Positions 4,960-64,000 of a stretch of DNA of 64,000 nucleotides are shown here, piece after piece. Position 1 is the stretch's first letter; each line of letters starts with the position of its first letter. Source of the DNA: Isurus oxyrinchus (lineage: Eukaryota); contig JANJGN010000009.1 of NCBI GenBank assembly GCA_026770705.1, positions 27,032,001 through 27,096,000 on the forward strand, read 5' to 3'. The translations under genes were made by a program, and so were the position numbers. Below the pieces are notes generated by a model. The model saw only the letters and a list, made by a program, of their open reading frames with translations. It was not told the origin of the DNA and made no database searches.

Positions 4960-5400
4960 CCCCCTGGTGACTGTCTGTTTGAAATCATATAATCCTGAAA
5001 TCATATAACCCTGAGACATTGTTAGATTGCCTACTACCACCTGTGGGTGATCATTCTTCATGTGACTCTAGATGGTGTGTATTAGCAGGCTCTTTGATTG
5101 TAGTGGAGAAACATCACAGCAAAGCTGTCCTTACTTGACGACATCTAGATTTGTACTTTCTACCAGTAGTTACTGGATTACATTCAGTGATAGGAATCCT
5201 GGTTCTGTCGAAGGGTCATGAAGACTCGAAACGTCAACTCTTTTCTTCTCCGCCGATGCTGCCAGACCTGCTGAGTTTTTCCAGGTAATTCTGTTTTTGT
5301 TTTAAATATTTTTAAACCCTGTCTCTGCATGAAGGACACCAGTACCCATCTGTGGTCCCAAAACCTTTGTGCAACTGACATCAGCTCTGTGCTTAACTAA
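4960..5400 (-). mobile_element. Ancient tRNA-type SINE (AmnSINE2-like), interrupted by a Penelope terminal insert
   Basis: Similar to 47020-47340 (+), 51140-51365 (-) and 61065-61325 (+); family name from recalled consensus only. Confidence 0.4.
5202..5303 (+). mobile_element. Young solo Penelope terminal fragment with hammerhead motif (tailless)
   Basis: 101/102 identical to 62562-62663; homologous to the element 3' end at 29189-29286. Confidence 0.85.
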
Positions 5401-5919: not shown

Positions 5920-6855
5920 GATTTTAGATGAGGTAAGTGAATGTACTATTGCCAAGTTTGCAGATAACAAAAATAACAAAGGTGGGAAGGCAAGTGTTGA
6001 GGATGACCATCTACAGGTTGTGAGTGGGAGATCACGTATCTTGGCAGATGGAATATAATGTGGGAAGATGAGGTTATGCATTCTGGCAGGAAGAATAGAG
6101 CAGCTGAATATAATTTAAATGGAGAAATACTGCAGAAAGCTACAGCACAGAGGGATTTGGGTGTCCTCGTGCATGAATCCCAAAAAGCTAGCATACAAGT
6201 TCAGGTAATAGGGAAGGCAAATGAAATGTTGGCCTTTATTTCAAAGGGAATGGAGTATAAAAATAGGGAAGTCTTGCTAATACTCTACAAGGCACTAGCT
6301 CAACCACACCTGGAGTACTGTGAACAGTTTTGGTCCCCTTATCTAAGGAAAAATATGCTGGCATTGGAGGCAGTCCAGAGAAGGTTCGTTAGGTTGATAC
6401 TGGGTATGGAGGAATTTTCTGATGAGAGGTTGAGTAGGTTGGGCCTGTACTCTTTGGAGTTTAGAAGAATGAGAGGTGACCTTATTGAAACATAAGATTC
6501 TAAGGGGGCTTGACAGAGGGGATGTTGAGAGGTTCTTTCACCTTGTGGGAGAGTCCAGGACCAGAGGATATAATCAGAGTAAGGGGTCGCCCATTTAAAA
6601 CTGAAATGAGGAGGAATTTCTTCTGAGGGTAGTGAATCTGTGAAATTCTTTACCACAGGGCTGTAGAGACTCGGTCGTTAAGTATATTCAAGGTTGAGAT
6701 AGACACTGATTTTTAATCAGTAAGAGAATTGAGGGCTATGGGGCAAAGGCAGAAAGTGGAGTGAGGATTATCAGATCAGCCATGATTTCATTGAATGGCA
6801 GAGCAGACTTATTGGGCCGAATGGCCTACTTGTGCTCCTACATTTTATGGTCTTA
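5920..6855 (+). mobile_element. CR1 LINE 3' part, 5'-truncated
   Basis: ORF 6058-6495 RDLGVLVH...[12 protein letters not shown]...RLGLYSLEFRRMRGDLIE; tail gggccgaatggcctacttgtgctccta. Confidence 0.92.
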
Positions 6856-9732: not shown

Positions 9733-9886
9733 AGATGACCCCTCTGAGATGACCCCTCTGAGATGACCCCTCTGAGATGACCCCTCTGAGATGACCCCTC
9801 TGAGATGACCCCTCTGAGATGACCCCTCTGAGATGACCCCTCTGAGATGACCCCTCTGAGATGACCCCTCTGAGATGACCCCTCTG
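9733..9886. repeat. Perfect minisatellite (AGATGACCCCTCTG) x11
   Basis: Eleven identical 14-bp units with no spacers. Confidence 0.97.
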
Positions 9887-10945
9887 ATCTTTGGCTATGT
9901 GAGAAATTGTGAAAACACATATATTTTGGCACTCTAGAGCAAGCATGTCACTAATGCACAAAAGGTTAATTTTTGTTTTGAGGGTTGAAGGTCAATAAAT
10001 ACATCACTCTTATCTATCCATAATGGTATTGGTGAGCCTGCCAAGCTAACTACAGCTATAATTTCAATTTCTTTGTGCACCAAACTTGTTATCAGTAATC
10101 TTAAGCTGGGACTCTGTCCAATTCCCATGGTGGAACAGAAATTCAATTTATAAGTAATTCAGTATACAATTATTAATATATAATTTGCTGCATAATTTGT
10201 GGAGGCTAGAGCACTTCAATGCCTTGGATCTGAATGAACTATAGATCTTGTTTAAAAGGGGCAAAAATCCCTTATTCACTGGTTTACTGTTGAGTATTAT
10301 GCCACGAGTAATGTACAATGTAATTAAACTCATTTGTATTCTGTACTATTGCTACATCAATTATATTTTAATCTGGATTATTTTAAAGTGCAAGGTGTTT
10401 TAAACCCTAATGGATCCAGGGAATTTAAGGACCATCTTCAGATTTCAGCTTATACCATGACCTTAAACCAAGCCTTTAATATCATGGTATTAAAGATGAG
10501 AAAAATAGATATGTTACATATCCTTCATGCAACAGACATTTTCCCTTTATTTCTGCCACTTCCCCTTTATTTAATGTTATTAATCCTGAACTGTGAGCAA
10601 TATTGTTCACAATTAGCCTGTAATTACTTGTAGCTTTTCCAATTACTTGAAGGAGTATGTTAAATTTACCAGACCAATCTTTTGAGTGCACCCCTGTTGG
10701 ATGATGTAACTTTATTTTGCTGTTGTCTGTGTCGTTTGGGTTGCTGGCAAGTTGTCTTTGTAACATTCAATGTCCTGCTCATGCATTGCAGGCAAAATGC
10801 ATTTGATTTCTCGCCAGAATCTTTGTCTGCCATCTTCAAAATCTCACTGCAGTGGACGATAGTTGGAAATCATGTGCACTAACAGTTCCAGCATCCATAC
10901 CTTTTTAATCATTTGTTATGTCAGAACTTCAAGTTTCTGGTTTTA

Positions 10946-17194: not shown

Positions 17195-17333
17195 TAGGTG
17201 GAGGCAAAGGAGAGATTGCCAAAGATGTCATGTCATGGATAAAGGATTGTTAATATAGTAATACTGGCTAAAGTGGGTACTGATGGTGGCATCAAGGTCA
17301 GAATGTGATAATGGCAGGACAAGAGTAAGCACT
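17195..17333 (-). mobile_element. Inverted Penelope terminal-repeat fragment abutting the 5' end of the next element
   Basis: Reverse complement agtgcttactcttgtcctgccattatcacattct... matches 18481-18555. Confidence 0.7.
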
Positions 17334-17334
17334 T

Positions 17335-18706
17335 AATTCCTGGTGATAGACTGTCCACCACTATTTACTACAAGCTGACCAATTCCCACAGTTCCCTAGA
17401 CTACACTCCTCACACCCTGCCTCCTGTAAGGACTCCATTCCATTCTTGGTTCCTTTGCCTCTGTCGCATCTATTCCAATGTTACCACTTTCCAAAATGGT
17501 GCTTCTGACATGTCTTCCTCCTTCAATCGAGGTTTCCCACCCACTGTGGTTGACGGGGCCCTCAACTGTATCTGACGCATCTACTGTGCCTCTGCCCTCA
17601 CACTTTCCTATCCCTCCTAGAACCATGATAGGGTCCCCCTTGTCCTCACTTTTCACCCCACCAGCCTCCGCATTCAAAGGATCATCCTTCACCATTTCTG
17701 CCAACTCCAGCATAATGCCACCACCAAACACATCTTCCCCTCACTGCACCCCCCTACCCCCGTCAGCATTTCATAGGGACCATTCCCTCTGGGACACCCT
17801 GGTCCACTCCTCCATCGCCCCCAACACCTCATCTCCCTCCCATGGCACCTTCCCATGCAATTGCAGAAGGTGCAGCACCTGTCGCTTTACCACCTCCCCT
17901 CCTCACCATCCAATGGCCCAAACACCCCTTTCTGGTGAAATAGTGCTTCACTTGCACCTCCTTAAATTTGATCTACTGCATTTCCTGCTCCCAATGCAGT
18001 CTTCTCTACATTGGAGAGACAAAACGCAGACTGGGTGATCAATTTGCGGAACATCTTTGGTCTGTCTGCAAGCATGACCCGGACCTTCCGGTGGCTTGCC
18101 ATTTCAACACTCCACCCTGCTCTCATGCCCACATGTCTGTCCTTGGCCTGCTGCAATGTTGCAGTGAAGCTCAACACAAACTGGAGAAACAGCACCTCAT
18201 CTTCCGACTAGGCACTTTACAGCCTTCCGGACTTAACATTGAGTTCAACAACTTCAGATCATGAATTCTCTCCTCCACCCTTACCCCTTCTTGTTTTTAC
18301 CCCCTTTTTTAATATTCTTTCTCATTTCTTAATTTTTTATTCACTTATTTTTATTTTCATTTTTATTCATTGTTTTATCCCCACCTTTTATCCTATTTTC
18401 AATCTTTTTTTCCCCCACCACTGTCCCCTTCCCCCACCCCACAAGGACCATCTGTCATTTGTTCATGTTGCTCTTTCCAGAGTGCTTACCTTTGTCCTGC
18501 TATTATCACATTCTACTTTCTGATCTTAATACCACCATCAGCACCTCCTTCACCTGTTCCACCCCCTTAGACAGTATAAACTTCATTACATTTTTACTTC
18601 TCTCTAGCTCTGAAGAAGAGTCTTAAGGACTCGAAACAACTCCTGTTTTTTTTCTCTCCATAGATGCAGCTAGGCCTGAGTTTTTCCAGCATTTTCTATT
18701 TTTGTT
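17335..18706 (+). mobile_element. Penelope-like element, lineage A (Neptune-type), 5'-truncated and frameshifted
   Basis: Cys linker TFPCNCRRCSTC; GIY-YIG IYCISCSQCSLLYIGETKRRLGDQFAEH...LGTLQPSGLNIEF; terminal hammerhead motif. Confidence 0.9.
18606..18642 (+). ncRNA. Hammerhead motif lacking its cleavage triplet
   Basis: CTGAAGA-A-gagtc-ttaag-gactc-GAAAC-aactc; 3 nt missing relative to gaaacgtcaactc in other copies. Confidence 0.6.
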
Positions 18707-18984
18707 GCGGAATTATTTGTTCACTTGGGCAGGTGGACCATATACTCTGAAGCTTGTTCTGTCTACAAGGATGGGAGGTGAAATGAGGCAAATGTAGTTT
18801 AGAATTCTTGGCTCAATGCACAAAATGGTTGGTTCTTTTACTGCACACTTTGATTCCATAGAGGAGTGGGACTAGTTGAGTAGCTCTTGGAGAGAGCTGG
18901 CACAGATTTGATTGGTTACAGCACAGAAGAAGGAGGTTATTCAACCTTTCAATTATCATTGCCAATGTCATAGTTGGGGTCCGA

Positions 18985-26798: not shown

Positions 26799-28424
26799 AA
26801 AAATAAAAATACCTGGAAAATCTCAGTAAGTCTGACAGCATCTGCGGGGAAGAACACAATTAACGTTTCAAGTCCGTATGACTCTTCAACAGAACTAAGG
26901 AAAATGAGAAGAGAAGTGAAATATAAGCTGGTTTAAGGGGGGGGGGTGGGCCAAGTAGAGCTGGATAATGGATCAGTGATAGGTGGAGATAGCCAAAAGA
27001 TGTCTTGGACAAAAAAGGACAAAGAGGTGTTGACGGTGGTGAGATTATCTAAGGAATGTGCTAATTGGTGACATTAAGGATAGAAAGCAGGACGAGCAAG
27101 GTACAGACAGCCCTAGTGGGGTGGGAGGAAGGGATCGAAATAGGCTAAAAGGTAGAGATAAAACAATGGATGGAAATACATTTAAAAATTATGGAAATTG
27201 ATAGGAAAATAAAAATCTATATAAATTATTGGAAAAAATGGGGTGGGGATGGAGGATAGAGTTCATGATCTAAAATTGTTGAACTCAATATTCAGTTCAT
27301 AAGGCTGTAAAGTGCCTAGTCGGAAGATGAGGTGCTGTTCCTCCAGTTTGTGTTGAGCTTCACTGGAACATTGCAGCAGGCCACAGGCCAAGGACAGACA
27401 TTTGGGCATGAGAGCAGGGTGGAGTGTTGAAATGGCAAGCAACAGGGAGGTCTGGGTCATGCTTGCAGACAAACCGAAGGTGTTCCGCAAAGCGGTCATT
27501 CAGTCTGCATTTGGTCTCTCCAATGTAGAGGAAACCGCATTGGGAGCAGTGAATGCATTAGACTAAATTGAGGGAAATGCCAGTGAAATGCTGCTTCACT
27601 TGAAAGGAGTGTTTGGGCCCTTGGACGGTGAGGAGAGGGGAAGTAAAGGGGCAGGTGTTGCATCTTCTGCAGTTGCATGAGAATGTGCCATGGGAGGGGG
27701 TTGAGGTGTAGGGGGTGATGGAGGAGTGGACCAGTGTGTCCCAGAGGGAATGATCCCTGCGTAATGCCACCAGGGGATGAAGGGCAGATGTGTTTGGTGG
27801 TGGCATCATGCTGGAGTTGGCGGAAATGGTGGAGGATGATCCTTTGAATGTGGAGGCTGTTGGGTTGATAAGTGAGGACAAGGGGGACAACGTCATGGTT
27901 CTGGGAGGGAGAGGAAGGTGTGAGGGCAGATGCGTGAGAGATGGGCCGGACGCGGTTGAGGGCCCTGTCAACCACCATGAGTGGAAAAGCTCGGTTAAGG
28001 AAGAAGGAATACATGTCAGAGAAACTGTTTTTGCAAGTGGTATCATCAGAACAGATGTGACAGAGGTGAAGGAACTGAGAGAATAGGATGGAGTCCTTAC
28101 AGGAAGCGGGGTGTGAGGAGTTGTAGTCGAGTGGGAGTCGGTAGGCTTGTAATGAATATTGCTGGACAGTCTATCACCAGAAATTGAGACAGAGGTCAAG
28201 GAAGGGATGGGAAATGTCAGAGATGGACCATGTGAAAATGATGGAAGGGTGGAAATTGGAAGCAAAATTAATAAATTTTTCCAAGTCCAGACGAGAGCAT
28301 GAAGCAGCACCGAAGCAATCATCGATGTACTGGAGAAAGAGTTGTGGGAAGAGGCTGGAGTAGAACTGGAACAAGGAATGTTCCACGTACCCCATAAAGA
28401 GACAGGCATAACTGGGGCCCATGC
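26799..28424 (-). mobile_element. Penelope-like element lineage A, left arm (RT core, GIY-YIG and terminus)
   Basis: MGPSYACLFMGYVE...LQYIDDCFG (RT YIDD motif); CNCRRCNTC linker; LEEQHLIFRLGTLQP. Confidence 0.93.
26859..26895 (-). ncRNA. Minimal hammerhead motif, variant core
   Basis: Minus strand: gtt-CTGTTGA-A-gagtc-atacg-gactt-GAAA-cg-TT-aat. Confidence 0.55.
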
Positions 28425-29327
28425 CGCTTTACTTCCCCTCTCCTCACCGTCCAAGGGCCCAAACACTCCTTTCAAGTGAAGCAGCATTTCACTTGCACTT
28501 CCCTCAATTTAGTCTAATGCATTTGCTCCTAATGCGGTTTCCTCTACATTGGAGAGACCAAATGCAGATTGGGTTACCACTTTGCGGAACACCTTCGGTC
28601 TGTTCGCAAGCATGACCCAGACCTCCCTGTCCCTTGCCATTTCAACACTCCACCCTGCACTCATGCCCACATGTCTGTCCTTGGCTTGCTGCATTGTTCC
28701 AGTGAAGCTCAACACAAACTGGAGGAACAGCACCTCATCTTCTGACTAGGCACTTTACAGCCTTATGAACTGAATATTGAGTTCAACAATTTTAGATTAC
28801 GAACTCTCTCCTCCATCCCCACCCCCTTTCCAATCTCCCTTTTTTCCAATAATTTATATAGATTTTTCTTTTCCCACCTATTTCCATTATTTTTAAATAT
28901 ATTTCCATCCATTGTTTTATCTCTACCTTTTAGCCTATTTCAATCTCTTCCCCCCAACCCATCCCCACTAGGGCTGTCTGTACCTTGCTCGTCCTGCTTT
29001 CTACCCTTAATGTCACCAATTAGCACATTCCTTAGATAATCTCACCACCGTCAACACCTTTGTCCTTTTTGTCTATGACATCTTTTGGCTATCTCCACCT
29101 ATCACTGGCCCTCTATCCAGCTCTACTTGGTCTCCCCACCCCCACCCCCAAACCAGTTTATATTTCATCTCTCTTCTATTTTTCCTTAGTTCTGTTGAAG
29201 AGTCATACGGACTCGAAACGTTAACGGTGTTCCTCTCAGCAGAATGCTGTCAGACCTGCTGAGATTTTCCAGGTATTTTCATTTTTGTTTTCGATTTCCA
29301 GCATCCGCAGTTTTTTGCTTTTATTTT
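28422..29327 (+). mobile_element. Penelope-like element lineage A, right arm (GIY-YIG, terminus and 41-nt tail)
   Basis: Inverted copy of 26799-27653; ends at the TSD agcatagctaaaagt. Confidence 0.92.
29189..29225 (+). ncRNA. Minimal hammerhead motif, variant core
   Basis: gtt-CTGTTGA-A-gagtc-atacg-gactc-GAAA-cg-TT-aac; stems I and II pair. Confidence 0.65.
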
Positions 29328-39369: not shown

Positions 39370-42230
39370 AGTAAATCTGGAGAGATGGTGCAGGAGGGAG
39401 GGTGTTAGATTCCTGGGACATTGGGACTATTTCTGGGGGAGGCGCGACCTGTGCAAGTTGGATGGGTTATATCTGAACAGGACCAACATCCTTGTGAGGA
39501 GGCTTGCTGATGCTTTTGGGGTGGATTTAAACTAAATTAGCAGGGGGATGGAATCCTGAAAAGTAGCTCAGGAGAAGAGAAGCCAAGATGGAATTAGAAG
39601 TTAAAACACTAAGTGAGTCTGGAAGGCAGAGAAAACAGGCTAGGTAAGAAAGAAGTGAGTTTAGCAAAGCTAAATAAAATATATTTTAATGCAAGGGGCC
39701 TGAGGAATAAGACAGGCTAGCTGAGGGCACAGACAGGCGTGTGGGAGTATGATATCATAGCTGAGACTCAGGCTGGCTAAAAGAAGGGCAGTATTGGCAA
39801 TTCAGCGTTCCTGATTATAGGGTATTCAGACGAGATAGGAAGGGGGATAGAAGAGGAGGGGGTTTGCAATATTAATCAAGTCAAGGAATCAATTATAGCA
39901 GTGCAGAGGAATGATATCTTGGAAGGATCATCAATGAGGCCATATGGGTAGAAGTAAAAACACAAAGGGAAAACATGCCGTTGGGTGTGTACTATAGGCC
40001 CCCAAACAGGTAGAGATGGAGGATCAAATATGTAACCAAATTTCAGAGAAGTGTAAGAATAATGCAGTAATAGGGGATTTTAACTACCCAAATATTAACT
40101 GGGAAAGTTTTAGTGTGCAAGGTAAGGAGGGAGCAAAATTCTTAAGCTGCATCCAGGAGAACTTTTTTAACCAGTATGGAGACAGTCCAACAAGGGAGGG
40201 GGCAGGTCTGGACCTAATATTTAGAAATGAACCCGGGCAAGTGGAAGGCGTATCAGTAGGGGAGCATTTTGGAGATGGTGACCATAACTCAGTTAGATTT
40301 AGGATAGTTGTGGAAAAGGATAAAGTTGGGCTGGGAGTAAAAGTTCTAAACTGGGGAAAGGCTAATTTTACTAAAATGAGATACGATTTGGCCCAAGTGG
40401 ACTGGGAGCAGCTATTTGCAGATGAAACTGTCAGAGCAGTGGGAGGCATTCCAGGAGGAAATAACGAGAGTACAGGGCAATTATGTTCTCATAAAGACAA
40501 AAAGGGGGACCAAGTCCGGAGAACCCTTGATGTCAAAAGACATAAAGGTTAGGATTAAGAAAAAAGAGAAGCTTATGGTAGATACCAAGGGCTCAATATA
40601 GGAGAGTCCCTAGAGGAGTATAAAAAGTGCAGGGGGAACTTAAAAGGAAATTAGAAAAGCTAAGAGTGCATGAGACAGCATTGGTGGGTAGAATAAAGGA
40701 AAACCCAAAGGGGTTTCTTTAAATATAAGGAGCAAGAGAATAACTGGGGAAAGAGTAGGGCCAATTAGGGACCATAGAGGTAATCTGTGCATGGACCCAG
40801 AAGACATGGGTACGGTCCTCAATGAACATCAGTCCTCACAATGGATAAGGACGATGCAGGTATAGACATCAGGGTGGAGGACTGTGAAATATTAGAGCAA
40901 ATTAACATAGAGGAGGCACTAACAGGTTTAGCGTCCTCTAAAAGTAGATAAATCCGCTGGCTCGGGTGTGATGTATCCCAGGTTGTTAAGGGAGGCAAGA
41001 GAAGAGGTATCGGGCCTTGTCAGTAATTTTCAAATCCCCTCTGGCCACAGGTGAGCTGCCAAAGGACTTGAGGGCTGCCAATGTCCTTCCATTATTAAAA
41101 ACGGGAGGAAGGGATAGACCAGAAAATCACAGGCCAGTCAGTTTAACCTCAGTGTTGGGGAAGTTACTGGAAAGAATTCTGAGGGACAGAATGTATCTGC
41201 ACCTGAAGAAACAGTAATTAATCAGCTAGCCAGCATAGATATATTAAGGGAAGGTCGTGTTTGACAAATTTGATCAATTTTTTTGAGGAGGTAACTCAGT
41301 GTTGATGAGGGCATATGGGATACTTGTTTTCTATGCGTCAGCTAATAAAGGCATGAGTAGGAGATTATGCTGGAACTGTATAAAACACTGGTTAGGCCAC
41401 AACTAGAGTACTGCATGCAGTTCTGGTCACCACATTATAGGAAGGATGCGATTGCACTGGAGAGGGTGCGGAGGAGATTTACCAGGGAGTGAAAACTGGT
41501 TTTATTAAAATGTTAAATAACCGACATTGCAGTCAATGCATTTGATGTGGTATACATGGACTTAAGCAAGGCTTTTGATAGGGTCCCTCATGGCAGACTG
41601 GTCAAAAAAAGAAAGCCCATGGGATCCAAGGCAAAGTGGCACATAGGATCCAAAATTAGCTGAGGGGCAGGAAGCAGAGGGTGATGGTAGAGGGATGTTT
41701 TTGTGACTGGGAGTCTGTTTCCAGTGGGGTTCTGTAGGCTTGTTGCTGGGTCCCTTGTTTGTGGTGTACACAAACAATTTGGACTTAATGTAGGGGGTAC
41801 GATCAAGAAATTGTGGATGACACGAAAATTGCTAGGATGGTAAATAGTGAGGAGGATATCGATGGACTGGTCAGGTGGGCAGAGCAGTGACAAATGGAAT
41901 TCAACCTAGAAAAGTGTAGAGGTAGTGCACTTGGGGAGGGTTAACAAGGCAAGGAATTACACTATGAATGGTAGGACCCTGGAAAGTACTAAAGATCAGA
42001 GGGACCTTGGTGTACATATCCACAAATCCCTGAAGGTAGCAGGCAGTGAAGAAGGCATATGGGATACTTGTTTTCTATGCGTCAGCTAATAAAGGCATGA
42101 GTAGGAGATTATGCTGGAACTGTATAAAACACTGGTTAGGCCACAACTAGAGTACTGCATGCAGTTCTGGTCACCACATTATAGGAAGGATGCGATTGCA
42201 CTGGAGAGGGTGCGGAGGAGATTTACCAGG
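39370..42230 (+). mobile_element. CR1 LINE (ORF1 end, endonuclease, RT), decayed, 3'-truncated at the rearrangement junction
   Basis: VIGDFNYPNINW...PTREGAGLDLI...GDGDHN; ANVLPLLK...RPVSLTS; ends at gatttaccagg. Confidence 0.92.
41310..41536 (+). repeat. 227-bp direct duplicate of 42054-42280 inserted into the CR1 RT
   Basis: Apparently identical, offset 744 bp; interrupts gatgagggc|aatgcatttgat. Confidence 0.93.
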
Positions 42231-43215
42231 GAGTGAAAACTGGTTTTATTAAAATGTTAAATAACCGACATTGCAGTCAAGAAGTTAATCTGAAGCAGAA
42301 TGTCGGTTTGCAGTCAAGAAGTTAATCTGAAGCAGAAACAACTGCGACCACTAGCATTTTAACAGTTATCATTGTTGAAAATATGCACCATTAGAAAAAA
42401 GATAACCTAAATGAAGATGTAACCCTTTGGAAATATTACCATTTAGTTCATAGTTTTTTTCCTGCCAAGTGGGACATGGTTAAAAACTAAGTTAGGAAGT
42501 TAGAAATTTAAACAAGATGGAATTTTACTTCCCACCCAAAAGACAAGGAGGAATGGGTTACCAGGCATGGCTGTTGAAGCGGACAGGCTGCATGGCTCCA
42601 AACAGAGGTTGTTAGAACACTTTGAAAAGAAAACTGGATCTTCAAAAGAGAGCCAGTTGGCTTGTTCAGAATAGTGTTGTGCGGCAATTACACATGGTGG
42701 GTTATTCAGTACACACGATTTAATGATAAATATATACAAGTACACAGTGTGTACCCATCATGTCACTGGGATCATTGCATTCATTTGCTTTGAAGCTCCT
42801 TCTAGAGACCGGGTCAGCACAGTTGGTTTTTTGTAACAGCATCGAAAGATACTAACAAAATTGCTAAAGAGTGCAATAAACCAAGTGCTCAAACTGAATT
42901 GATGGAGGTGGCGTAATAAGGGTAAGGGAAAAAGGAAATGACTTGCAATTTTAACTTTTAAATCTACCAAGTTTTGGATAAGGGATGTACTGTGACCTGT
43001 TGGCCCTTTTAAAAAGATGCATTTATTGGTATTTGAATTTCCTCATGTGGCACCAAAACATTTGGCATATCTTGCTACCTTGCCAATAAAGCAACCGTTG
43101 CTTTCATGCTTTTCAATAGAAGGTTGAGAGGAAATTGCAATGTCCCAAGTAGTCTAAGCCCCAGCACAAAACACCACAAATCTACCACTCACTCAACCTT
43201 CATTTCTCCTTCATC
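42229..43215 (-). repeat. Left arm of 987-bp inverted duplication
   Basis: Reverse complement of 45830-46816; paired coordinates sum to 89045; about 9 mismatches seen. Confidence 0.97.
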
Positions 43216-44477: not shown

Positions 44478-45830
44478 ATATTCCATGCCACGTGCTAGTG
44501 AGGCTAGAAATAGGAGGATAATGCAACTAAATATGTGGCTAAAGAGATGGTGCAGGAGTGAGGGCTTCACGTTTCTGGACAATTGGGCTCTGTTCCACGG
44601 AAGATGGGACTTGTTCCGAAGGGACGGTTTGCTAGTGCTGCTCCGGGGGGTTTAAACTAGATTTGCAGGGGGGAGGGGAACCAGAGTGTTAGAGCAGATA
44701 GTGAGGTGGAGGAGGATAAAGGTCAAGCAACATGTATAGACAGAAATCAAGGGTTTCTACGGGATTGAAATGTTCTCAGGTGCATCTATTTTAATGCAAG
44801 GTGTATTGTCGGAAAGGCAGATGAGCTTTGGGCACGTGGGATTACGACATTATTGCTATTAGTGAGACTTGGTTGCAGGAGGGGCAGGACTGGCAGCTCA
44901 ATGTTGCAAGGTTCCATTGTTTCAGACGTGACAGAGGGGGAGGGATGAAAGGGGGAGGAGTGGCATTACTAGTCAGGGAAAATATCATAGCTGTGCATAA
45001 GCAGGACAGCCCGGAGGGCTGTTCCGCAGAGGCCATATGGGTGGAGCTGAGGAACGGGAAAGGTGTGTCCACACTAATAGGGTTGTATTATAGACCGCCC
45101 GATAGTCAGAGAGAATTGGAGGAGCAAATCTGTAGAGAGATAGCAGACCGATGTAAGAAACAGAAAGTTGTGATAGTAGAAGATTTTAACTTTCCACATA
45201 TTGACTGGGACTCCCATATTGTAAAAGGGCTGGATGGCTTGGAGTTTGTCAAATGTGTTCAGGATAGTTTTCTAAATCAATATATAGAGAGGATGCAATA
45301 CTTGATCTCCTATTAGGGAACCAGACAGGTCAAGTGACAGAAGTATGTGTAGGCGAACATTTTGGGTCCAGTGACTACAATGTCATTAGTTTTAAATTAA
45401 TTATGGATAAGGATAGGTTTGGTCCTCGAGTTGAGATTCTAAATTGGAGAAAGGCCAATTTTGTGGAAATGAGAAGGGATCTAGGAAGAGTGGATTGGGA
45501 TAAGTTGTTTTCTGGCAAGGATGTGTTCAGTAAGTGGAAGGCATTCAAAGGCGAAATTTTGAGAGTGCAGAGTTACATGTTCCTTAAAGATTAAAGACAA
45601 AGTTCAGGCATAGGGAATCTTGGTTTTCAAGGGATATTGGCGATCTGGTTAAGAAGAAGAGAGAGGTGTATAGCAGGTATAGGCAACAAGGAGCAAATGA
45701 GGTACTTGTAGAGTATAGAAAATGTAAGAAAATACTAAAGAAGGAAATCAGGAAGGCAAAAAGACGACATGAGGTTGCTTTGGCAGATAATGTGAAGGTA
45801 AACCCAAAGGGTTTCTACAAATATATTAAG
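44478..45830 (+). mobile_element. CR1 LINE (ORF1 end, endonuclease, linker), truncated at the right inverted-repeat arm
   Basis: YDIIAISETW...RRDR..GGGVALLV...GLYYRPP...DFNFPHIDW. Confidence 0.92.
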
Positions 45831-46816
45831 ATGAAGGAGAAATGAAGGTTGAGTGAGTGGTAGATTTGTGATGTTTTGTGCTGGGGCTTAAACTACTTGG
45901 GACGTTGCAATTTCCTCTCAACCTTCTATTGAAAAGCATGAAAGCAACGGTTGCTTTATTGGCAAGGTAGCAAGATATGCCAAATGTTTTGGTGCCACAT
46001 GAGGAAATTCAAATACCAATAAATGCATCTTTTTAAAAGGGCCAACAGGCCACAGTACATCCCTTATCTAAAACTTGGTAGATTTAAAAGTTAAAATTGC
46101 AAGTCATTTCCTTTTTCCCTTACCCTTATCACGCCACCTCCATCAATTCAGTTTGAGCACTTGGTTTATTGCACTCTTTAGCAATTTTGTTAGTATCTTT
46201 CGATGCTGTTACAAAAAACCAACTGTGCTGACCCGGTCTCTAGAAGGAGCTTCAAAGCGAATGAATGCAATGATCCCAGTGACATGATGGGTACACACTG
46301 TGTACTTGTATATATTTATCATTAAATCGTGTGTACTGAATAACCCACCATGTGTAATTGCCGCACAACACTATTCTGAACAAGCCAACTGGCTCTCTTT
46401 TGAAGATCCAGTTTTCTTTTCAAAGTGTTCTAACAACCTCTGTTTGGAGCCATGCAGCCTGTCCGCTTCAACAGCCATGCCTGGTAACCCATTCCTCCTT
46501 GTCTTTTGGGTGGGAAGTAAAATTCCATCTTGTTTAAATTTCTAACTTCCTAACTTAGTTTTTAACCATGTCCCACTTGGCAGGAAAAAAACTATGAACT
46601 AAATGGTAATATTTCCAAAGGGTTACATCTTCATTTAGGTTACTTTTTTTCTAATGGTGCATATTTTCAACAATGATAACTGTTAAAATGCTAGTGGTCG
46701 CAGTTGTTTCTGCTTCAGATTAACTTCTTGACTGCAAACCGACATTCTGCTTCAGATTAACTTCTTGACTGCAATGTCGGTTATTTAACATTTTAATAAA
46801 ACCAGTTTTCACTCCC
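45830..46816 (+). repeat. Right arm of 987-bp inverted duplication
   Basis: Reverse complement of 42229-43215. Confidence 0.97.
46426..46483 (+). other. Candidate host exon (58 nt)
   Basis: Acceptor gttttcttttcaaag, donor CTG|gtaacc; two gccATG contexts (46452, 46477); open in two frames. Confidence 0.45.
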
Positions 46817-52635: not shown

Positions 52636-53330
52636 TGTCTGAAATTTTACAGGGGGCTGGGGGAAGACATTGGGCCTATTGAACTATTGAAGCCCTCAAG
52701 TGCTGTGCGGGTGGTGGTGGTGGAAGCCTGAGCCATGTGGGAAGCCCAGCAGCTTGAGCTGCACAGGCTGGGGTCTGGCAAGAGGGAGGATGTTTTTTCA
52801 GTCCGCCTGGCCTGTTGGAGGCAGCTGTCCCTGGACTCTTGAATGTGGCCTGCCAACCCTGCTGAGACCCCTAACTGCCCTGGGCCTCTTCGTGTGGTGG
52901 GAGCAGTCCCAGTCACGGCCACTACTCCTGACAGGTGCTGCTGGGACAACAGAGCTGTCGGCCATCCAATTGGGCAGCAGCAATAAAGATTTCCACGTGA
53001 GAAATGGGTGGGAATCTCTCCTTAAAGCAACTAGTTCCCAGTGTTCAGTTGCTGTGGGGCAGCTGTTGGGGTNNNNNNNNNNNNNNNNNNNNNNNNNNNN
53101 NNNNNNNNNNNNNNNNNNNNNNNNNNNNNNNNNNNNNNNNNNNNNNNNNNNNNNNNNNNNNNNNNNNNNNNNNNNNNNNNNNNNNNNNNNNNNNNNNNNN
53201 NNNNNNNNNNNNNNNNNNNNNNNNNNNNNNNNNNNNNNNNNNNNNNNNNNNNNNNNNNNNNNNNNNNNNNNNNNNNNNNNCTCTTTTTAGTAAGGGGCTG
53301 GGGACTGAGGTGCCCCATAAAATCCAGCCT
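52636..53330. mobile_element. GC-rich MITE-like element spanning the assembly gap
   Basis: tctgaaattttac ... ataaaatccagcc termini resemble the other TIR elements. Confidence 0.45.
53073..53280. other. Assembly gap (208 N)
   Basis: Run of n. Confidence 1.
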
Positions 53331-53509: not shown

Positions 53510-53863
53510 AGTCTTTCCCCTGTACTGTTTTGAAATGTCACCATAGATTTACTTGTTCAGGTTTCTGGAGTAGAACTTAAACTATTGACCTTCTGACTCT
53601 TGAGGTGAGAGCGCTACCACTAAGCCTCGGCTAATGAAACAGTTCAGTGATTTATAAAAAAGAAAATCATAAGACATAGGCATTGGTGGCAAGGCCAGCA
53701 TTTGTTGCCCATCCCTAAATGCCCTTGAAGGTGGTGATGAGTCATGAGTGATGCAGTAATAGCAATGTGATAGGAGTCTTTCCCCTGTACTGTTTTGAAA
53801 TGTCATCATAGATTTACTTGTTCAGGTTTCTGGAGTAGAACTTAAACTATTGACCTTCTGACT
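53510..53863 (+). repeat. 89-bp direct duplication (53510-53598 and 53775-53863)
   Basis: One mismatch (cacc/catc); offset 265. Confidence 0.92.
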
Positions 53864-58030: not shown

Positions 58031-61000
58031 TAATTATGATTGGCAATGACACTAGTCCCAGTCTGGCTTGTGAAGCCCATCTCAACAGAATAGCTCACTC
58101 TTTGAGTACTGATGCCAGTTGAACAAATCATTTGGACGATGTTGATGAAGGTAATAAGGAACTCAGCTCCAGTATTGAAAAATTCCAAAGCCGTCCAATC
58201 TCTGGGCAATAAAAAGGTGGGAATGTGGGAGAGTAAAAAGATTGGGGGAATAAAATGGGTTATAATAGGCCTGGTGGTAATGTACACAGATCAATACAAG
58301 CTCTGCTTTTAATATGAAAAATTGATAAACATGTCAGTCTCTCATTTTATACAATTTCATTTTACTGGTTTTTACTGGTCTATTCTTGATTTGAAGTTGG
58401 GTCTTTCAAATTTCTGAATTTTTTTTCTGGACATTTGAAAACCCAGGTATTTACCAAAAGAATGAAGCCACAAGGTTCACTGTTTAAAACCAAAGAATTT
58501 TACTGGACAAAAATCAAAGAGCATGAATACTAATAAGTACACTCTGCCTTAAATTGTCAGGTACATTTTAAAGATATTAAAAGTACGATGAATGCAGTCA
58601 CTTTTAGAAGTTCTAAACCGAACTTCTTCATTACTCAATTTTCTTCTACGCCCATTTGACTGACACCCCCACCGCACTTAAAAAAAAACAAGCCTGATTC
58701 TTATCAGAAATTGGAAGATTAACCATATGGTCTAAGTAAATTTTCAAAGATTCATATACGGGTTGATATTTCCTGGGCATTCTACATACATTTGGTAATG
58801 TTGTCCCTTCAAATGTCTCTAACTGTCCCAAGGTTGTAGACTCCCTGTTTAACACAGGTCTGGCTAACGTCTGAAGCGTAGCCACCATGGGTCAGAACTC
58901 TCCTCTCCTGTTCTAATGGGCTAACTCTGAAACCTTGCATCTAGTCTCTCTCTCTACTTTCTTTTAAAATTGCTTGGTCACATGATCAGTTACTGGCCCC
59001 GAGTTACTTTTTTTTTACAGGAAATCCATCTTATCGAGAAACCTAGTTCTGAAAAGGACCATCATCCAACATAAAACATAGGCTTTCCACCAAAAGCACA
59101 TGGACCATCACCACTTTTTAAAGAATGCTACTTTAATTACATTGGTTAATTTCTGTCACTGCATGAGTTTTTTTGGACCAAAATAACAACAATGAATTGT
59201 CAAAAGTAGACTGCACTTGGTGAGTTCAGTGAATCTATTTAGATAAATTGGAACTCCACAGGATTTGGTATTTAGTGCTTTGCTACCAGTACACTTTTGG
59301 GAACATCGCCCTTAGTGTCAATATGCTGCATCTCATGTGATATTCTTAATTCATCTTCACAAATTACCCTGGCCAATTGCCCTCCATGATGTTGGATTTC
59401 ACTCTATCATTCTTATTCCAAATGCTCTCTGCAGATGTAAACATACTGCTGGGTGTTTTTTTTATCCACAATTTTAGTGGATGATTGCACAACTATGTAC
59501 CCACAAGTACGCTGTACTAAAATGATAATGCTAGTGTTTAAACGTAGTCCTCAGTTCTACACTCAAATGTTTTTTTTTGCACAATTAAGTGTGTGTAAAG
59601 AGCTACAGTAGGGTTATAGGCAAAATAAGGCCGTGTAGTTTGATTTAAAAGGCCTCTATAGTTTAAGGAACATAGGCCAGGAGTAGCCCATTAAGCCCCT
59701 TGATGAGATCATGGCTGATTTTGAAGCTAGAGCCCATATTGTGGAGTAAAAAGTTTTTAAATTGGACTCCATAATCGTCAACATAGTGTAAGATAGATGG
59801 CACAGGTGGCTTGTGCATAAAGGTGGCTTCCCTCTCCCGGTTGTGGCCCATGTACATGTAAAGGCCTGTACTGGAAACTCCTGACTTTTCCCTTTAATGA
59901 AAATCTGTTTCTGAGGCAGAGCTATTCCAACATCTATAGCTGTAATTAAAAGGCCTCTATTGTAATCATTTTAATAAAGATGATAATTAAAGTGGTTTCT
60001 AAAATAGTCCTGCTTTCATTGCTGCAAGAGGAGGCAAAGCTCATTGCTAGCTGGACTTCAAAGAAAAAAAAGTGCTGAAAATATACCTGGAAAGCAGGAT
60101 GACTTGAAGGAGTGTGCAAATAATGTAGCCCTGTAACAGACCCAGATTGCTGCTATAACCCTGTTTATGTTTTGGACACAAGAATTTGAATTTAAACCAT
60201 GTTGATAGCATCATAGTGTAGCTTCTTCACTTTGGAATCGTATGGCACAAAAATTCCTCTGTGTAACAGTGATTCCTTGAAGCCTTTAGGGTCAAGAACA
60301 TATGAAATTTTGAAGGGTGTTGAGCTGATTTTTTTTCAGAATCAAGCAATGGTTCCTAAAATTGAACTCTAACAAAAATATCTGTCTGTCGATCTACATT
60401 TTCTACAGTATAATGTTAGAGTAAAATTAAGAAATCGGCTTATGTACAGAAACTTACAGACATTTGTTGTGCTAATTCTATGGGCTCACTGATGCAAACC
60501 CTCAAACGTTTTCCTCCCTCCCTGCCCACCACGATATAAATCTTGTCCTCTGAGAGACAGCCCCTACAAAATGAAAGGGTCTGGTTAACTATTTGGTAAC
60601 GGCGCAATGATAAAACTTGATCCAAATACAGGCAAGTTATAATTTTTAAAATGGCCAGCCTTACTAAAACTATTTTTAACAAAGCCACTTCAGTCAAATA
60701 CATGACGTGGCAAAAACAAGTGGTCTGTAAAGCTCTTAATGCACCTTTTTATCATTAGTCAATTGATGAGGTTAAATGATTGGGTTAGATAAAGAAAACA
60801 TGTTTACTTGACAAGTTATTTTTTGTTTCCTGCCCAGCTCCCCTTTGAGATGGAGGTCTACTATATCCAACACATCACGCTATATATTGTTCCAATCTAC
60901 CTGATGCAGAAAGGGGGTAAGCTTTTTAGATTTTTTAAATGTTCCAAATGACAAAATGGAATGCCAGTTTTAAATATTTGATTAATTACACATTTTGCGA

Positions 61001-61837
61001 TATTTGTTCAGTCGCAGCTTGGTGTGGGAATGCAACATACACATCAGAAAAATAACGTTTGATAACCTGGTTTGTGCTGTTTAGTTAATCCCAAAAAAAG
61101 TGACAGTAGGAATAATGCACTCTGCCTCAGTGTTCCCATGCAAGGGAGGGAAAATCATAGGGAATTCTAATCCTGATCATGAGCCCATAATTCCTTCTGG
61201 TAAGGCGTACCTGGTGTCAGCTGAGAGCAGAGTCTGGTGGTACTTTCAGCTAAGAGCTAGTTGATAGTGTCCACTTAGTGTAAATAATTAAACTTTGGGC
61301 AAGGTACTGGAAATATTGGTATAAACAGCAAAAATTTGGTAGTTTAAGAAGAGGAAGGATTCACTCTCGGTATTTTGTTTTTTTTAAATTAAATGGCAAT
61401 AGGTAATATATTGTTTGAAACCTGGGTTTTCCACCTGTGGATTTACCACAGGTTCAGATACAGACCAGACCAGGTGGAAGTGTAAACTATCTGTTGGCAT
61501 TAAATTCGTCATCTACCTCCACAGGATAGTAGTTAAAGAACAGGAACATGTCGTGCTGATGCATTAGGGGGCGGGCTTCTGAGATTGTAGCTGAGGTGTA
61601 TTTTTGGAGCAGAGCGGGGAGGGAAGCATTCACTCTGTTTAACCAAGTAGGAGACTGGAATCCAAATGAGATATTTCATACATATTTTAACAGATGCAAC
61701 TGTAGCTTGCTTGAGCAATTATTGAGCAAAAGCAATCATTTCCTTGCCCAGTTCCATATTCCAAGCTATTCTAGGCTTACCAGTGTTACACTCCTCTCTC
61801 TGACTTCTAACAACATCAGTGACAATGAATAAGACAA

Positions 61838-64000
61838 TAAGACATAGGAGCAGAAGTAGGCCATTCAGCCCATTGAGTCTGCTCTGGCATTCAGTGAGAT
61901 CATGGCTGATCTGATAATCCTCAACTCCACTTTCCTGCCTTTTCTCCAAAACCCTTGATTCCCTTACTGATTTAAAAATGTCCGTCTCCACCTTGAATAT
62001 GCTCAATGACCAGCCCTCTGCAGTAAAGAATTCCACAGATTCACTACCCTCAGAAGAAATTCCTCCACATCTCGGTCTTAAATGGGTCAATCCTTACTCT
62101 GTGATTATGCCTTCTGGTCCTAGACTCTCCTAGTAAGGGAAACAACCTCTCAACATCTATCCTGCTAAGCTCCCCTAAGAATCTTATGTTTCAATAAGGT
62201 TGCCTCTCATTCTTCAAAACTCCAATGAGTACAAGCCCAACCTCTCCTCATAAGAAAATCCCTCCATACCTGGGATCAACCTAGTGAACCTTCTCTGGCT
62301 TGCCTCCAATGCCAGAAATCTTTCCTTAGATAAGAGGTCCAAAACTGTTCACAGTATTCTAGGTGTGGTCTAACTAATGCCTTGTATAGTTTTAGCAAGA
62401 CTTCTGTTTGAAATAAAGGCCAACATTCCTTTTGTCTTTTCTATTACCTGCTTGTATGTTAGCTTTTGCGGATTCATGCATGGGGATTCTCAAATCCTCT
62501 GTGCATCAGCTTTCTGCAGTCTTTATCCATTTAAATAATATTCAGCTGGACTCGAACTCAAGTTCTGTCGAAGGGTCATGAGGACTCGAAACGTCAACTC
62601 TTTTCTTCTCCGCCGATGCTGCCAGACCTGCTGAGTTTTTCCAGGTAATTCTGTTTTTGTTTTGGATTTCCAGCATCCGCAGTTTTTTTGTTTTATCCTC
62701 TATTCTTCCTGCCAAAATGCATAACCTCACATTTCCCACATTCCATCTGCCAAGTTTATGACTACTCACTCAACATGTCTATATCCCTCTGTAGACTGTC
62801 ATTCCCACCACTTGCCTTCCTGGCTATTTACGTCATCTGAAAACTTGGTGATAGTACATTCACTTCCCTCATCTAAGTATTAATATATATTATAAATAAT
62901 TGTGGCCCCAGCACTGATCCCTGTGGCACTCCACTAGTTACATGTTGCCATCCTGAAAATTGCCCCCTAATCCCAACCCTGTCTTCTATTAGTTAACCAA
63001 TTCTCTCTCCATGCTAATATACTATCCCCAACACCACGGGCTCTTAGCTTATCAAATAGCCTTATGTGCAGTACCTTATTAAATGCCTTTTGGAAATCTA
63101 AATATATTACATCTACTGGTTCACATTTTATCTATCCTGCTTGTTACCACTTCAAAGAGTTCTAATAAATTTGTCAGGCATGATTTCCCCTTCATGAAGC
63201 CATGCTGACTCTACTTGATTAGATTATGCACTTCTAAATGCTCTGCTAATACATCCTTTAAAATAGACTCTAACATTTTCCCAATGATGAATGTTAAGCC
63301 AACTGGCCTGTAGTTCTGTTTTTCTCTCTCCCTTTTTGAATAAGGGTGTTACATTGGCAGTTTTCCAATCTTGGACTTTTCCAGAATCTAAGGATACTTG
63401 GAAGATTACCAGATTATCCATTATTTGTGCAGCTATTTCCTTTAATATCCTAGGATGCAACCCATTAGGTCCAAGGAACTTATCAGCCTTTAGCCCCATT
63501 AGTTTCCCTAGTACCTTTTTTCTCTGGTGATTGTTATTGTATTTATTCCCCCCCCCCCCCACCCCCCAACCTGTTCTCTTTCCCCTTTGATTATTTAGTG
63601 TTTTTGGAATGCTATTAGTGTCTTCGACTGTGAAGACTGATGCAAAGTATTTATTCAACTCCTCTACCATTTCCTGGTTCCCCATTATTATTTCCCCAGC
63701 TTTATTCCCTAAGGAGCCTATGTTCCTTTTTATATATTTAAAAAAGCTCTTACTGTCCATTTTTATATTACCTGCTGGTTTATCCTCCAAGATTATTTTC
63801 TCCCTCTTAATTATTTTTTGATCATCTTTTGTTGGTTCTTAAAACTTTCCCAATCATCTGGCTTACCACTAATCTTTGCGACACTGTATGATTTTTGCTT
63901 TCAATTTGATACTATCCTTAACTTGATTAACCATGGTTGGTTTACCCTCCTTTTCACAGGGATATATCTTCGTTGTGAGTCATGAACTATTTTCAACGTC
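61838..64000 (-). mobile_element. CR1 LINE (linker, RT, 3' end), runs off the window
   Basis: ELNKYFASVFT...GPNGLHPRILKE...DWKTANVTPLFKKG; 3' UTR at 61838. Confidence 0.93.
62548..62696 (+). mobile_element. Young solo Penelope terminal fragment with hammerhead motif and tail, inserted in CR1
   Basis: agtt-CTGTCGA-A-gggtc-atgag-gactc-GAAA-cg-TC-aact; interrupts ttcagct|cctctattcttcc with no clear TSD. Confidence 0.88.

Follow-up and report, generated by a model that had tools for sequence, protein, structure and literature searches.

The DNA analysed here (the window) is a 64,000-nucleotide stretch of contig JANJGN010000009.1 of Isurus oxyrinchus. It contains two short inserts on the plus strand, copy 1 (5202–5303) and copy 2 (62549–62697), both of which are almost certainly 5'-truncated ends of a young and very abundant Penelope-like element (PLE). 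Positions within the element are counted from +1, the first G of the 5' strand of the hammerhead stem after a conserved A (window position 5202 or 62562), with 0 as the preceding base. Copy 1 is a solo arm without a tail and covers +1 to +102 of the pLTR end. Copy 2 is a 149-bp solo arm, and its optional 3' tail of about 33 nt (62664–62696, plus strand) is bounded by the family's two common 3' ends, at +101/102 and +134/135. An earlier note on this DNA had described 5202–5303 and 62562–62663 as near-identical at a distance of 57 kb, and indeed 101 of 102 nt match, the only mismatch being A versus G at 5222 in loop II. Five CpGs are intact in each copy, only copy 2 carries the tail and inspection of the flanks revealed no TSD at either copy, all as previously stated.

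Two further statements of the earlier note hold for one copy each. A start at stem I applies to copy 1, whereas copy 2 starts 13–14 nt earlier in the family sequence, at −12/−13 (base 62548 is assignable to either side). Because these 13 nt (62549–62561, plus strand), which are found in copy 2 only, match the long copies upstream, the shared start is simply that of the shorter copy. The insertion into an older repeat applies to copy 2, which lies within a repeat at 61830–62876 with a paralogue on the opposite strand (5924–6855); the empty site at 6100/6101 matches both flanks without a duplication. For copy 1, a genome search returned only the left flank itself, and the right flank has a repeat match only from approximately 175 nt away.

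The hammerhead-like motif of copy 1 (5202–5239, plus strand) is of the minimal type I and was read by hand and checked by pair counts. It comprises the core CUGUCGA (5205–5211) with U at position 6, a 5-bp stem II, GAAA and the palindromic ACGU, and the predicted cut is located after 5235. The motif of copy 2 (62561–62599, plus strand) has its core at 62565–62571 and its predicted cut after 62595. In element numbering, stem I pairs 0..+3 with +35..+38, the core spans +4..+10, the cut is predicted after +34 and the tail ends at +135. The spacer of copy 2 additionally harbours a 9–10-nt repeat (62548–62557) of the stem II 3' strand plus GAA (= +21..+30), a feature of the young family that is absent from the older subfamilies. 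A scan of the 64-kb window with Rfam gave no hammerhead hit at E ≤ 1, and predicted folding of the monomer and the dimer did not give the hammerhead fold.

The coding Penelope copies of the window are older relatives of the young family; they are frameshifted and 73–81% identical to the young unit, in line with their earlier description as decayed. One of them (17332–18714, plus strand) consists of the endonuclease end and a pLTR and has the canonical core CUGAAGA. A decayed head-to-head pair of the intermediate subfamily (26799–29324, core CUGUUGA) is composed of a minus arm (26799–28424) and a plus arm with tail (28422–29324). Several other features were recorded in the window, namely recent repeats at 41303–41536 and 42047–42280 (99% identical), a 987-bp inverted pair at 42229–43215 and 45830–46816 (99% identical), a perfect tandem repeat with a 56-bp period (9733–9887) and an 89-bp direct repeat of 99% identity (53510–53863) beside a 208-base run of N (53073–53280). 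A weak U7 snRNA match on the minus strand (58473–58532, 31 bits against a gathering threshold of 34) is probably due to chance.

The young family is represented by 64,476 exact matches to +3..+37 (the hammerhead 35-mer) in the 5.0-Gb genome, 94,983 to +73..+101, 33,630 to −16..+18 and 911 to one length variant of the tail, totals that count arms and not insertions. The first two correspond to 0.83 and 1.22 expected matches per 64 kb, so that two near-identical copies 57 kb apart are unsurprising. Of 67 sampled arms reaching +1, 21 show no difference from copy 2 across 101 nt, and the mean is 1.55 differences. Full units of about 3.3 kb lie between direct pLTRs. The intact autonomous partner with an identical terminus that the earlier note had proposed to look for was found in locus L234, a tandem of three pLTRs with an open frame of 926 codons (stop to stop), and in L236, with an intact ORF of 925 codons. 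In Pfam searches the ORF matched RVT_1 above the cut-off (E 7e-8) and GIY-YIG below it (E 9e-4), and a C-x4-C-x2-C motif was read directly before the endonuclease in L234. An ORF with RVT_1, a weak GIY-YIG match and CxxC between them is the composition of an EN+ PLE, and the layout with partial tandems of the pLTR, inverted arms, an optional tail and a variable TSD is likewise that of EN+ PLEs. A zinc-finger-like CX2-5CxxC motif in the RT–EN linker is reported to be present in Neptune and Nematis and absent from Penelope and Poseidon (PMC8557442). By the definition of this linker motif alone, the young family is classified as a Neptune/Nematis-type PLE; a Poseidon label was dropped because L234 has the motif.

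Stems and core have had different fates within the family. In the young copies, stem II pairs in 69–70 of 70 cases, stem I in 63–68 of 70, GUC is present in 63/70 and ACGU in 60/70. Stems I and II, GAAA, the palindromic loop 3 and the NUH triplet of a minimal type-I hammerhead are all there; the core C3 U4 G5 A6 N7 G8 A9 is departed from by U at position 6. This position is A in all 26 of the oldest copies, U in 39 of 56 intermediate copies and U in 69 of 70 young copies, that is, A6U became fixed in the young family while the stems were kept. Changes of A6 are reported to lower cleavage (PMC3088659), and A6C to be very slow in Mg2+ and active in Mn2+ (PMC7151607). The A6U motif is predicted to cut weakly. 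A cleavage assay of A6U was not found in a literature search. Luense et al. (2017) reportedly dealt with PLE hammerhead variants and may already list A6U.

The 5' ends of the young family were determined in two samples, the first 100 exact matches listed to +73..+101, from the first 3.4 Mb of contig C1 (sample B, 99 recovered), and the first 100 exact tail matches listed, from C1 and C2 (sample A, 95 scored). Both samples were drawn from the beginning of the two largest contigs and represent a small part of the roughly 10^5 arms; in sample A, at least two arms that begin 3' of +73 were omitted, as was a locus that did not belong to the scored set. Six natural copies served as references for extending each arm upstream. 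Since the subfamilies differ upstream of stem I, which would otherwise inflate a peak, two subfamily references and a rule rescuing the divergent subfamilies were included. In sample B, 16 arms end at +14..+73, 8 at +5..+13, 22 at −4..+4, 6 at −36..−5 and 47 beyond; the numbers for sample A are 10, 5, 13, 10 and 57, respectively. The per-base rate at −4..+4 thus exceeds that of the remainder 9.6-fold (22/99) in sample B and 6.4-fold (13/95) in sample A. Since this 9-nt window was picked post hoc, the simulations allowed any 9-nt window, and the observed peak was reached in none of 20,000 simulations for sample B and in 19 of 20,000 for sample A. The ends are therefore not those of plain random truncation. 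The plot of 5' breakpoints proposed in the earlier note, on which a sharp peak at stem I would support a defined unit and a broad spread would refute it, gave an intermediate result: the peak is sharp, but about half of the arms (47/99 and 57/95) extend far upstream. The peak is seen in tailed (12/61) and tail-less arms (9/34), is about 9–17 nt wide and has a shoulder to +13. A minor second cluster near +9, the end of the core, is visible in both samples at +8..+10. Among 19 arms that continue into the ORF, four start in the peak zone (−1, +2, +3 and +8) and 11 pass −36, i.e., have long 5' pLTRs.

The 3' ends fall at up to +107 in 34 arms of the 99-arm sample and at +108..+150 in 60, and five arms continue into the ORF. 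Clear TSDs of 8–15 bp flank 21 of 33 solo arms, two are complex and ten arms have none; among the tail-less solos that resemble copy 1 are L128, L133, L197, L212 and L122, each with a TSD. A further tail-less stub (−1..+102) was observed in the 3' UTR of a same-family copy, with a 10-bp TSD (L092, G000:C1:260126280-260128820, minus strand). At L065 (G000:C2:41382500-41384300) and L122, short units of 208 and 225 bp are repeated in tandem; every unit includes a single hammerhead and the 70 nt that follow the tail. The units of both loci break near +202/204, where a third initiation site may lie.

A separate non-autonomous, retrozyme-like element of 100–150 nt that is transcribed and spreads by itself, one of the two explanations put forward earlier, could account for the many solos with TSDs of their own and for the short one-hammerhead tandem units in L065 and L122. 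Non-LTR retrozymes (Cervera and de la Peña 2020, PMC7229834; Li et al. 2026, bioRxiv 10.64898/2026.07.22.740005) are, as reported, also short, non-coding, hammerhead-bearing and derived from PLEs. They are described as tandem repeats with one hammerhead per unit and circular RNAs, whereas the stubs found here occur singly and dispersed, have ragged 5' ends that lie away from the cut site, and carry a non-canonical core. Both window copies are single, and a genome count of the tandem junction of L065 gave six matches at two loci. No fixed 5' end or private variant was seen; 30 short arms of sample B end at positions other than the peak, against 22 at it, the stubs match the pLTR of intact copies and lack the TATA-like block described below, and the 33,630 exact copies of −16..+18 extend upstream of the motif. 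With about half of the arms far upstream, autonomous copies sharing the terminus and a rare tandem junction, a separate retrozyme is unsupported and we regard it as very improbable; a reading as a SINE was rejected on the same grounds, together with the upstream-spanning copies. The pile-up at stem I is a hotspot of 5' ends and does not delimit a retrozyme, and copies 1 and 2 are ordinary members of a large class of truncated PLE ends.

Ribozyme cleavage as the source of the 5' ends predicts starts at +35. None of the arms of either young sample starts at +33..+36, and cleavage-made ends were rejected for the young family. For two older subfamilies, with 7,010 and 20,145 exact anchor matches, the arms scored (51 and 75) were those at the top of the match list. 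By eye, one of 51 and two of 75 (3/126) start at +35/+36, which leaves room for slight cleavage in these. The peak at stem I recurs in both, ends at −1..+4 being counted in 9/51 arms by script (14/51 by hand) and in 10/75; script and hand counts are given because the profile method over-extends five inverted junctions, where it is disturbed by palindromes.

Splicing at the AG just inside stem I would be another way to generate such ends, and a stretch resembling a splice acceptor, a pyrimidine tract with AG, precedes +2 in all subfamilies. In D. virilis, an intron is reported to end at helix I (Cervera and de la Peña, PMC4209133). Assembled contigs from five sequencing runs (four probable RNA, one of unknown kind) of 24 listed were inspected, a type of data blind to starts, strand and circles. 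An 82-nt contig with the exact ends +2..+83 occurs in two of the probable RNA runs, and in one run five contigs depart at +83 into unlike sequence. This segment corresponds to 62563–62644 in the window and to 1404–1485 in locus L032; an AG directly precedes +2, and what looks like a strong GT donor follows +83. It may be a small exon in host transcripts; alternatively, the ends could be contig breaks at subfamily variants. One solo arm (L154, G000:C1:1317166-1320200, minus strand) has 71 nt of CpG-rich foreign sequence between its 14-bp TSD and +1, which may be a captured fragment or a spliced upstream exon. Against splicing as the general cause, an upstream exon would not fit into most of the arms bounded by TSDs, and many retain the AG and the bases before it. 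Splicing or cleavage as the origin of the peak is accordingly given very little credence.

Joining of cDNA ends during repair deserves more consideration but is still unlikely. Palindromes at the front edge of the hammerhead would let cDNA ends fold back or anneal and thereby favour joins at this site. Palindrome self-priming has been proposed for a rotifer Penelope (PMC3846280), 33 of 54 short arms in the 99-arm sample adjoin an inverted arm (a count made before subfamily correction) and junctions lie on palindromes at L095, L114, L214, L261 and L274. The peak is, however, equally strong in host-flanked solos with TSDs (13 of 31 hand-picked arms, P 4e-7), so it is not solely an effect of fold-back, and it persists across subfamilies with differing local palindromes.

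A TATA-like block is located 30–33 nt upstream of +1 in 167 of 174 scored motifs, while the intervening sequence varies. From the TTTCA at the end of the block to +1 the main young subfamily has 29 nt, three more than either older subfamily (26 nt). The ratio of ends at −8..−2 to ends at −1..+4 is 18:24 in the young family and 3:19 in the older ones (Fisher P 0.025; rank test P 0.059), which is suggestive of an upstream shift of the young ends along with the three extra spacer nucleotides. No stable fold is predicted upstream of stem I (−45..+10, −5.6 kcal/mol).

A pause or drop-off of the reverse transcriptase at stem I on longer RNAs, caused by the folded hammerhead or by a protein bound there and involving no transcription start, was the other explanation of the earlier note. 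The location of the peak on the 5' strand of stem I, shared by three subfamilies, the retention of the stems despite the changed core and the similar behaviour of ORF-continuing and other arms, of which about 20–35% of those arriving stop at −4..+13, are all compatible with it. Copying proceeds from 3' to 5', though, and a stop is expected near +38 or +26, whereas the rate at +14..+73 is at background (16/99). The ends of the young family lie as far out as −3 to −6, beyond the fold, and their position follows the upstream spacer; moreover, predicted folding does not favour the hammerhead. Because the ends pile up past the whole copied fold, with no pile-up at the 3' foot or the cut site, a stop by the fold, possible as it is, fits less well than run-off from the RNA 5' end, and we consider it rather unlikely.

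We favour, with modest confidence, an origin of the stubs by reverse transcription initiated within the first pLTR and terminated by run-off at the RNA 5' end. The hotspot then likely marks the RNA start of the element, as inferred from the positions of the ends. On this model the RT–endonuclease of the element would nick the DNA and copying would begin inside the RNA at +101 or +135. Priming in the first pLTR would lead to run-off after 100–150 nt and hence to a stub, often of two head-to-head arms, and priming in a later pLTR of a tandem transcript to long or complete copies. The TATA-like block, about 30 nt upstream, would determine where transcription begins, and uncut RNA would be the template, in keeping with the weak cutting predicted for the A6U motif. 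Copy 1 would have arisen by run-off after initiation at the inner site; the end of copy 2 lies in the shoulder just upstream of the peak. Run-off would account for the collection of ends past the copied fold, for the drop in rate just upstream and for the way in which the edge follows the spacer. In vitro, the protein of an Anolis PLE is reported to cut and extend both DNA strands, to initiate within the RNA at two sites bounding the tail and to function with hammerhead cleavage being dispensable (PMC11167929). PLE promoters are reported to sit in the pLTR and to drive the downstream unit (PMC2377424, PMC6765202).

Some observations count against run-off. The G before peak ends is not in excess (8/44), so a cap signature is lacking. 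The long 5' pLTRs of the 11 ORF-continuing arms imply that read-through or tandem transcripts are necessarily common. The width of the peak and its shoulder could equally be produced by a pause. The Penelope promoter of D. virilis is described as internal and TATA-less (PMC2377424), which speaks against a start set by a TATA-like block.

Much of what surrounds the hotspot is familiar. Truncated and solo pLTRs, inverted arms, tails and single minimal hammerheads have already been described (PMC8557442, PMC3846280, PMC4209133). The pLTR insertions of EN+ PLEs of the Neptune/Nematis type (Craig et al. 2021, PMC8557442; Arkhipova et al. 2013, PMC3846280) are reported to share the heavy 5' truncation, the partial tandems, the adjacent inverted arm, the optional one-sided tail of 30–40 bp, the variable TSD and the C-terminal GIY-YIG with the CX2-5CxxC linker motif. 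The available portions of these reports mention no fixed 5'-end hotspot, whereas 14–22% of the arms start within 4 nt of stem I here. PAc (Poseidon of Anolis carolinensis; Frangieh et al. 2024, PMC11167929) shares two tail-separated 3' ends with a hammerhead upstream of both, and as far as that account extends, neither PAc nor the young family shows signs of a cleaved-RNA template. By the linker motif PAc belongs to a different clade, and its ORF is reported to start in stem II, whereas the long ORF starts past the tail here; an A6U core and a genomic 5'-end peak are not described for PAc in the available text. With the minimal PLE hammerheads described so far, the motif shares a short stem I, an unpaired base before stem II, the G10.1–C11.1 pair and the palindromic loop 3, as well as the occurrence as mostly single motifs from truncated copies with some opposite-strand pairs. 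The core variant named in the accessible descriptions is U3-A8, as opposed to the change of A6 to U found here. A literature search, covering listings and the text of the papers cited here, turned up neither a pile-up of 5' ends at stem I nor a core in which A6U is fixed; supplements may contain A6U motifs or 5'-end maps. The stubs are thus an ordinary, known class, the hotspot is real and measurable, and the core is unusual.

We tentatively suggest, with more doubt than conviction, that this lineage silenced its hammerhead by A6U and then burst to about 10^5 copies with the fold kept at the exact 5' end of the RNA, the stubs being a record, in the manner of retroviral strong-stop products, of internal initiation in the first pLTR. 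If run-off is correct, the stubs would map the transcription start to the base. Uncut RNA would then be the template, and the PLE hammerhead fold would be a 5'-end or protein-binding structure and not a cutter. The role of the hammerhead in PLEs and the RNA that is copied are standing questions (PMC4209133, PMC11167929). A single genome offers tens of thousands of copies in three successive subfamilies, two of which have U6 and the other a canonical core, as well as a natural A6/U6 pair of ribozyme variants for assay. All three subfamilies leave ends at the motif's front edge and hardly any where the cut is predicted, from which a sharp prediction of the RNA start follows.
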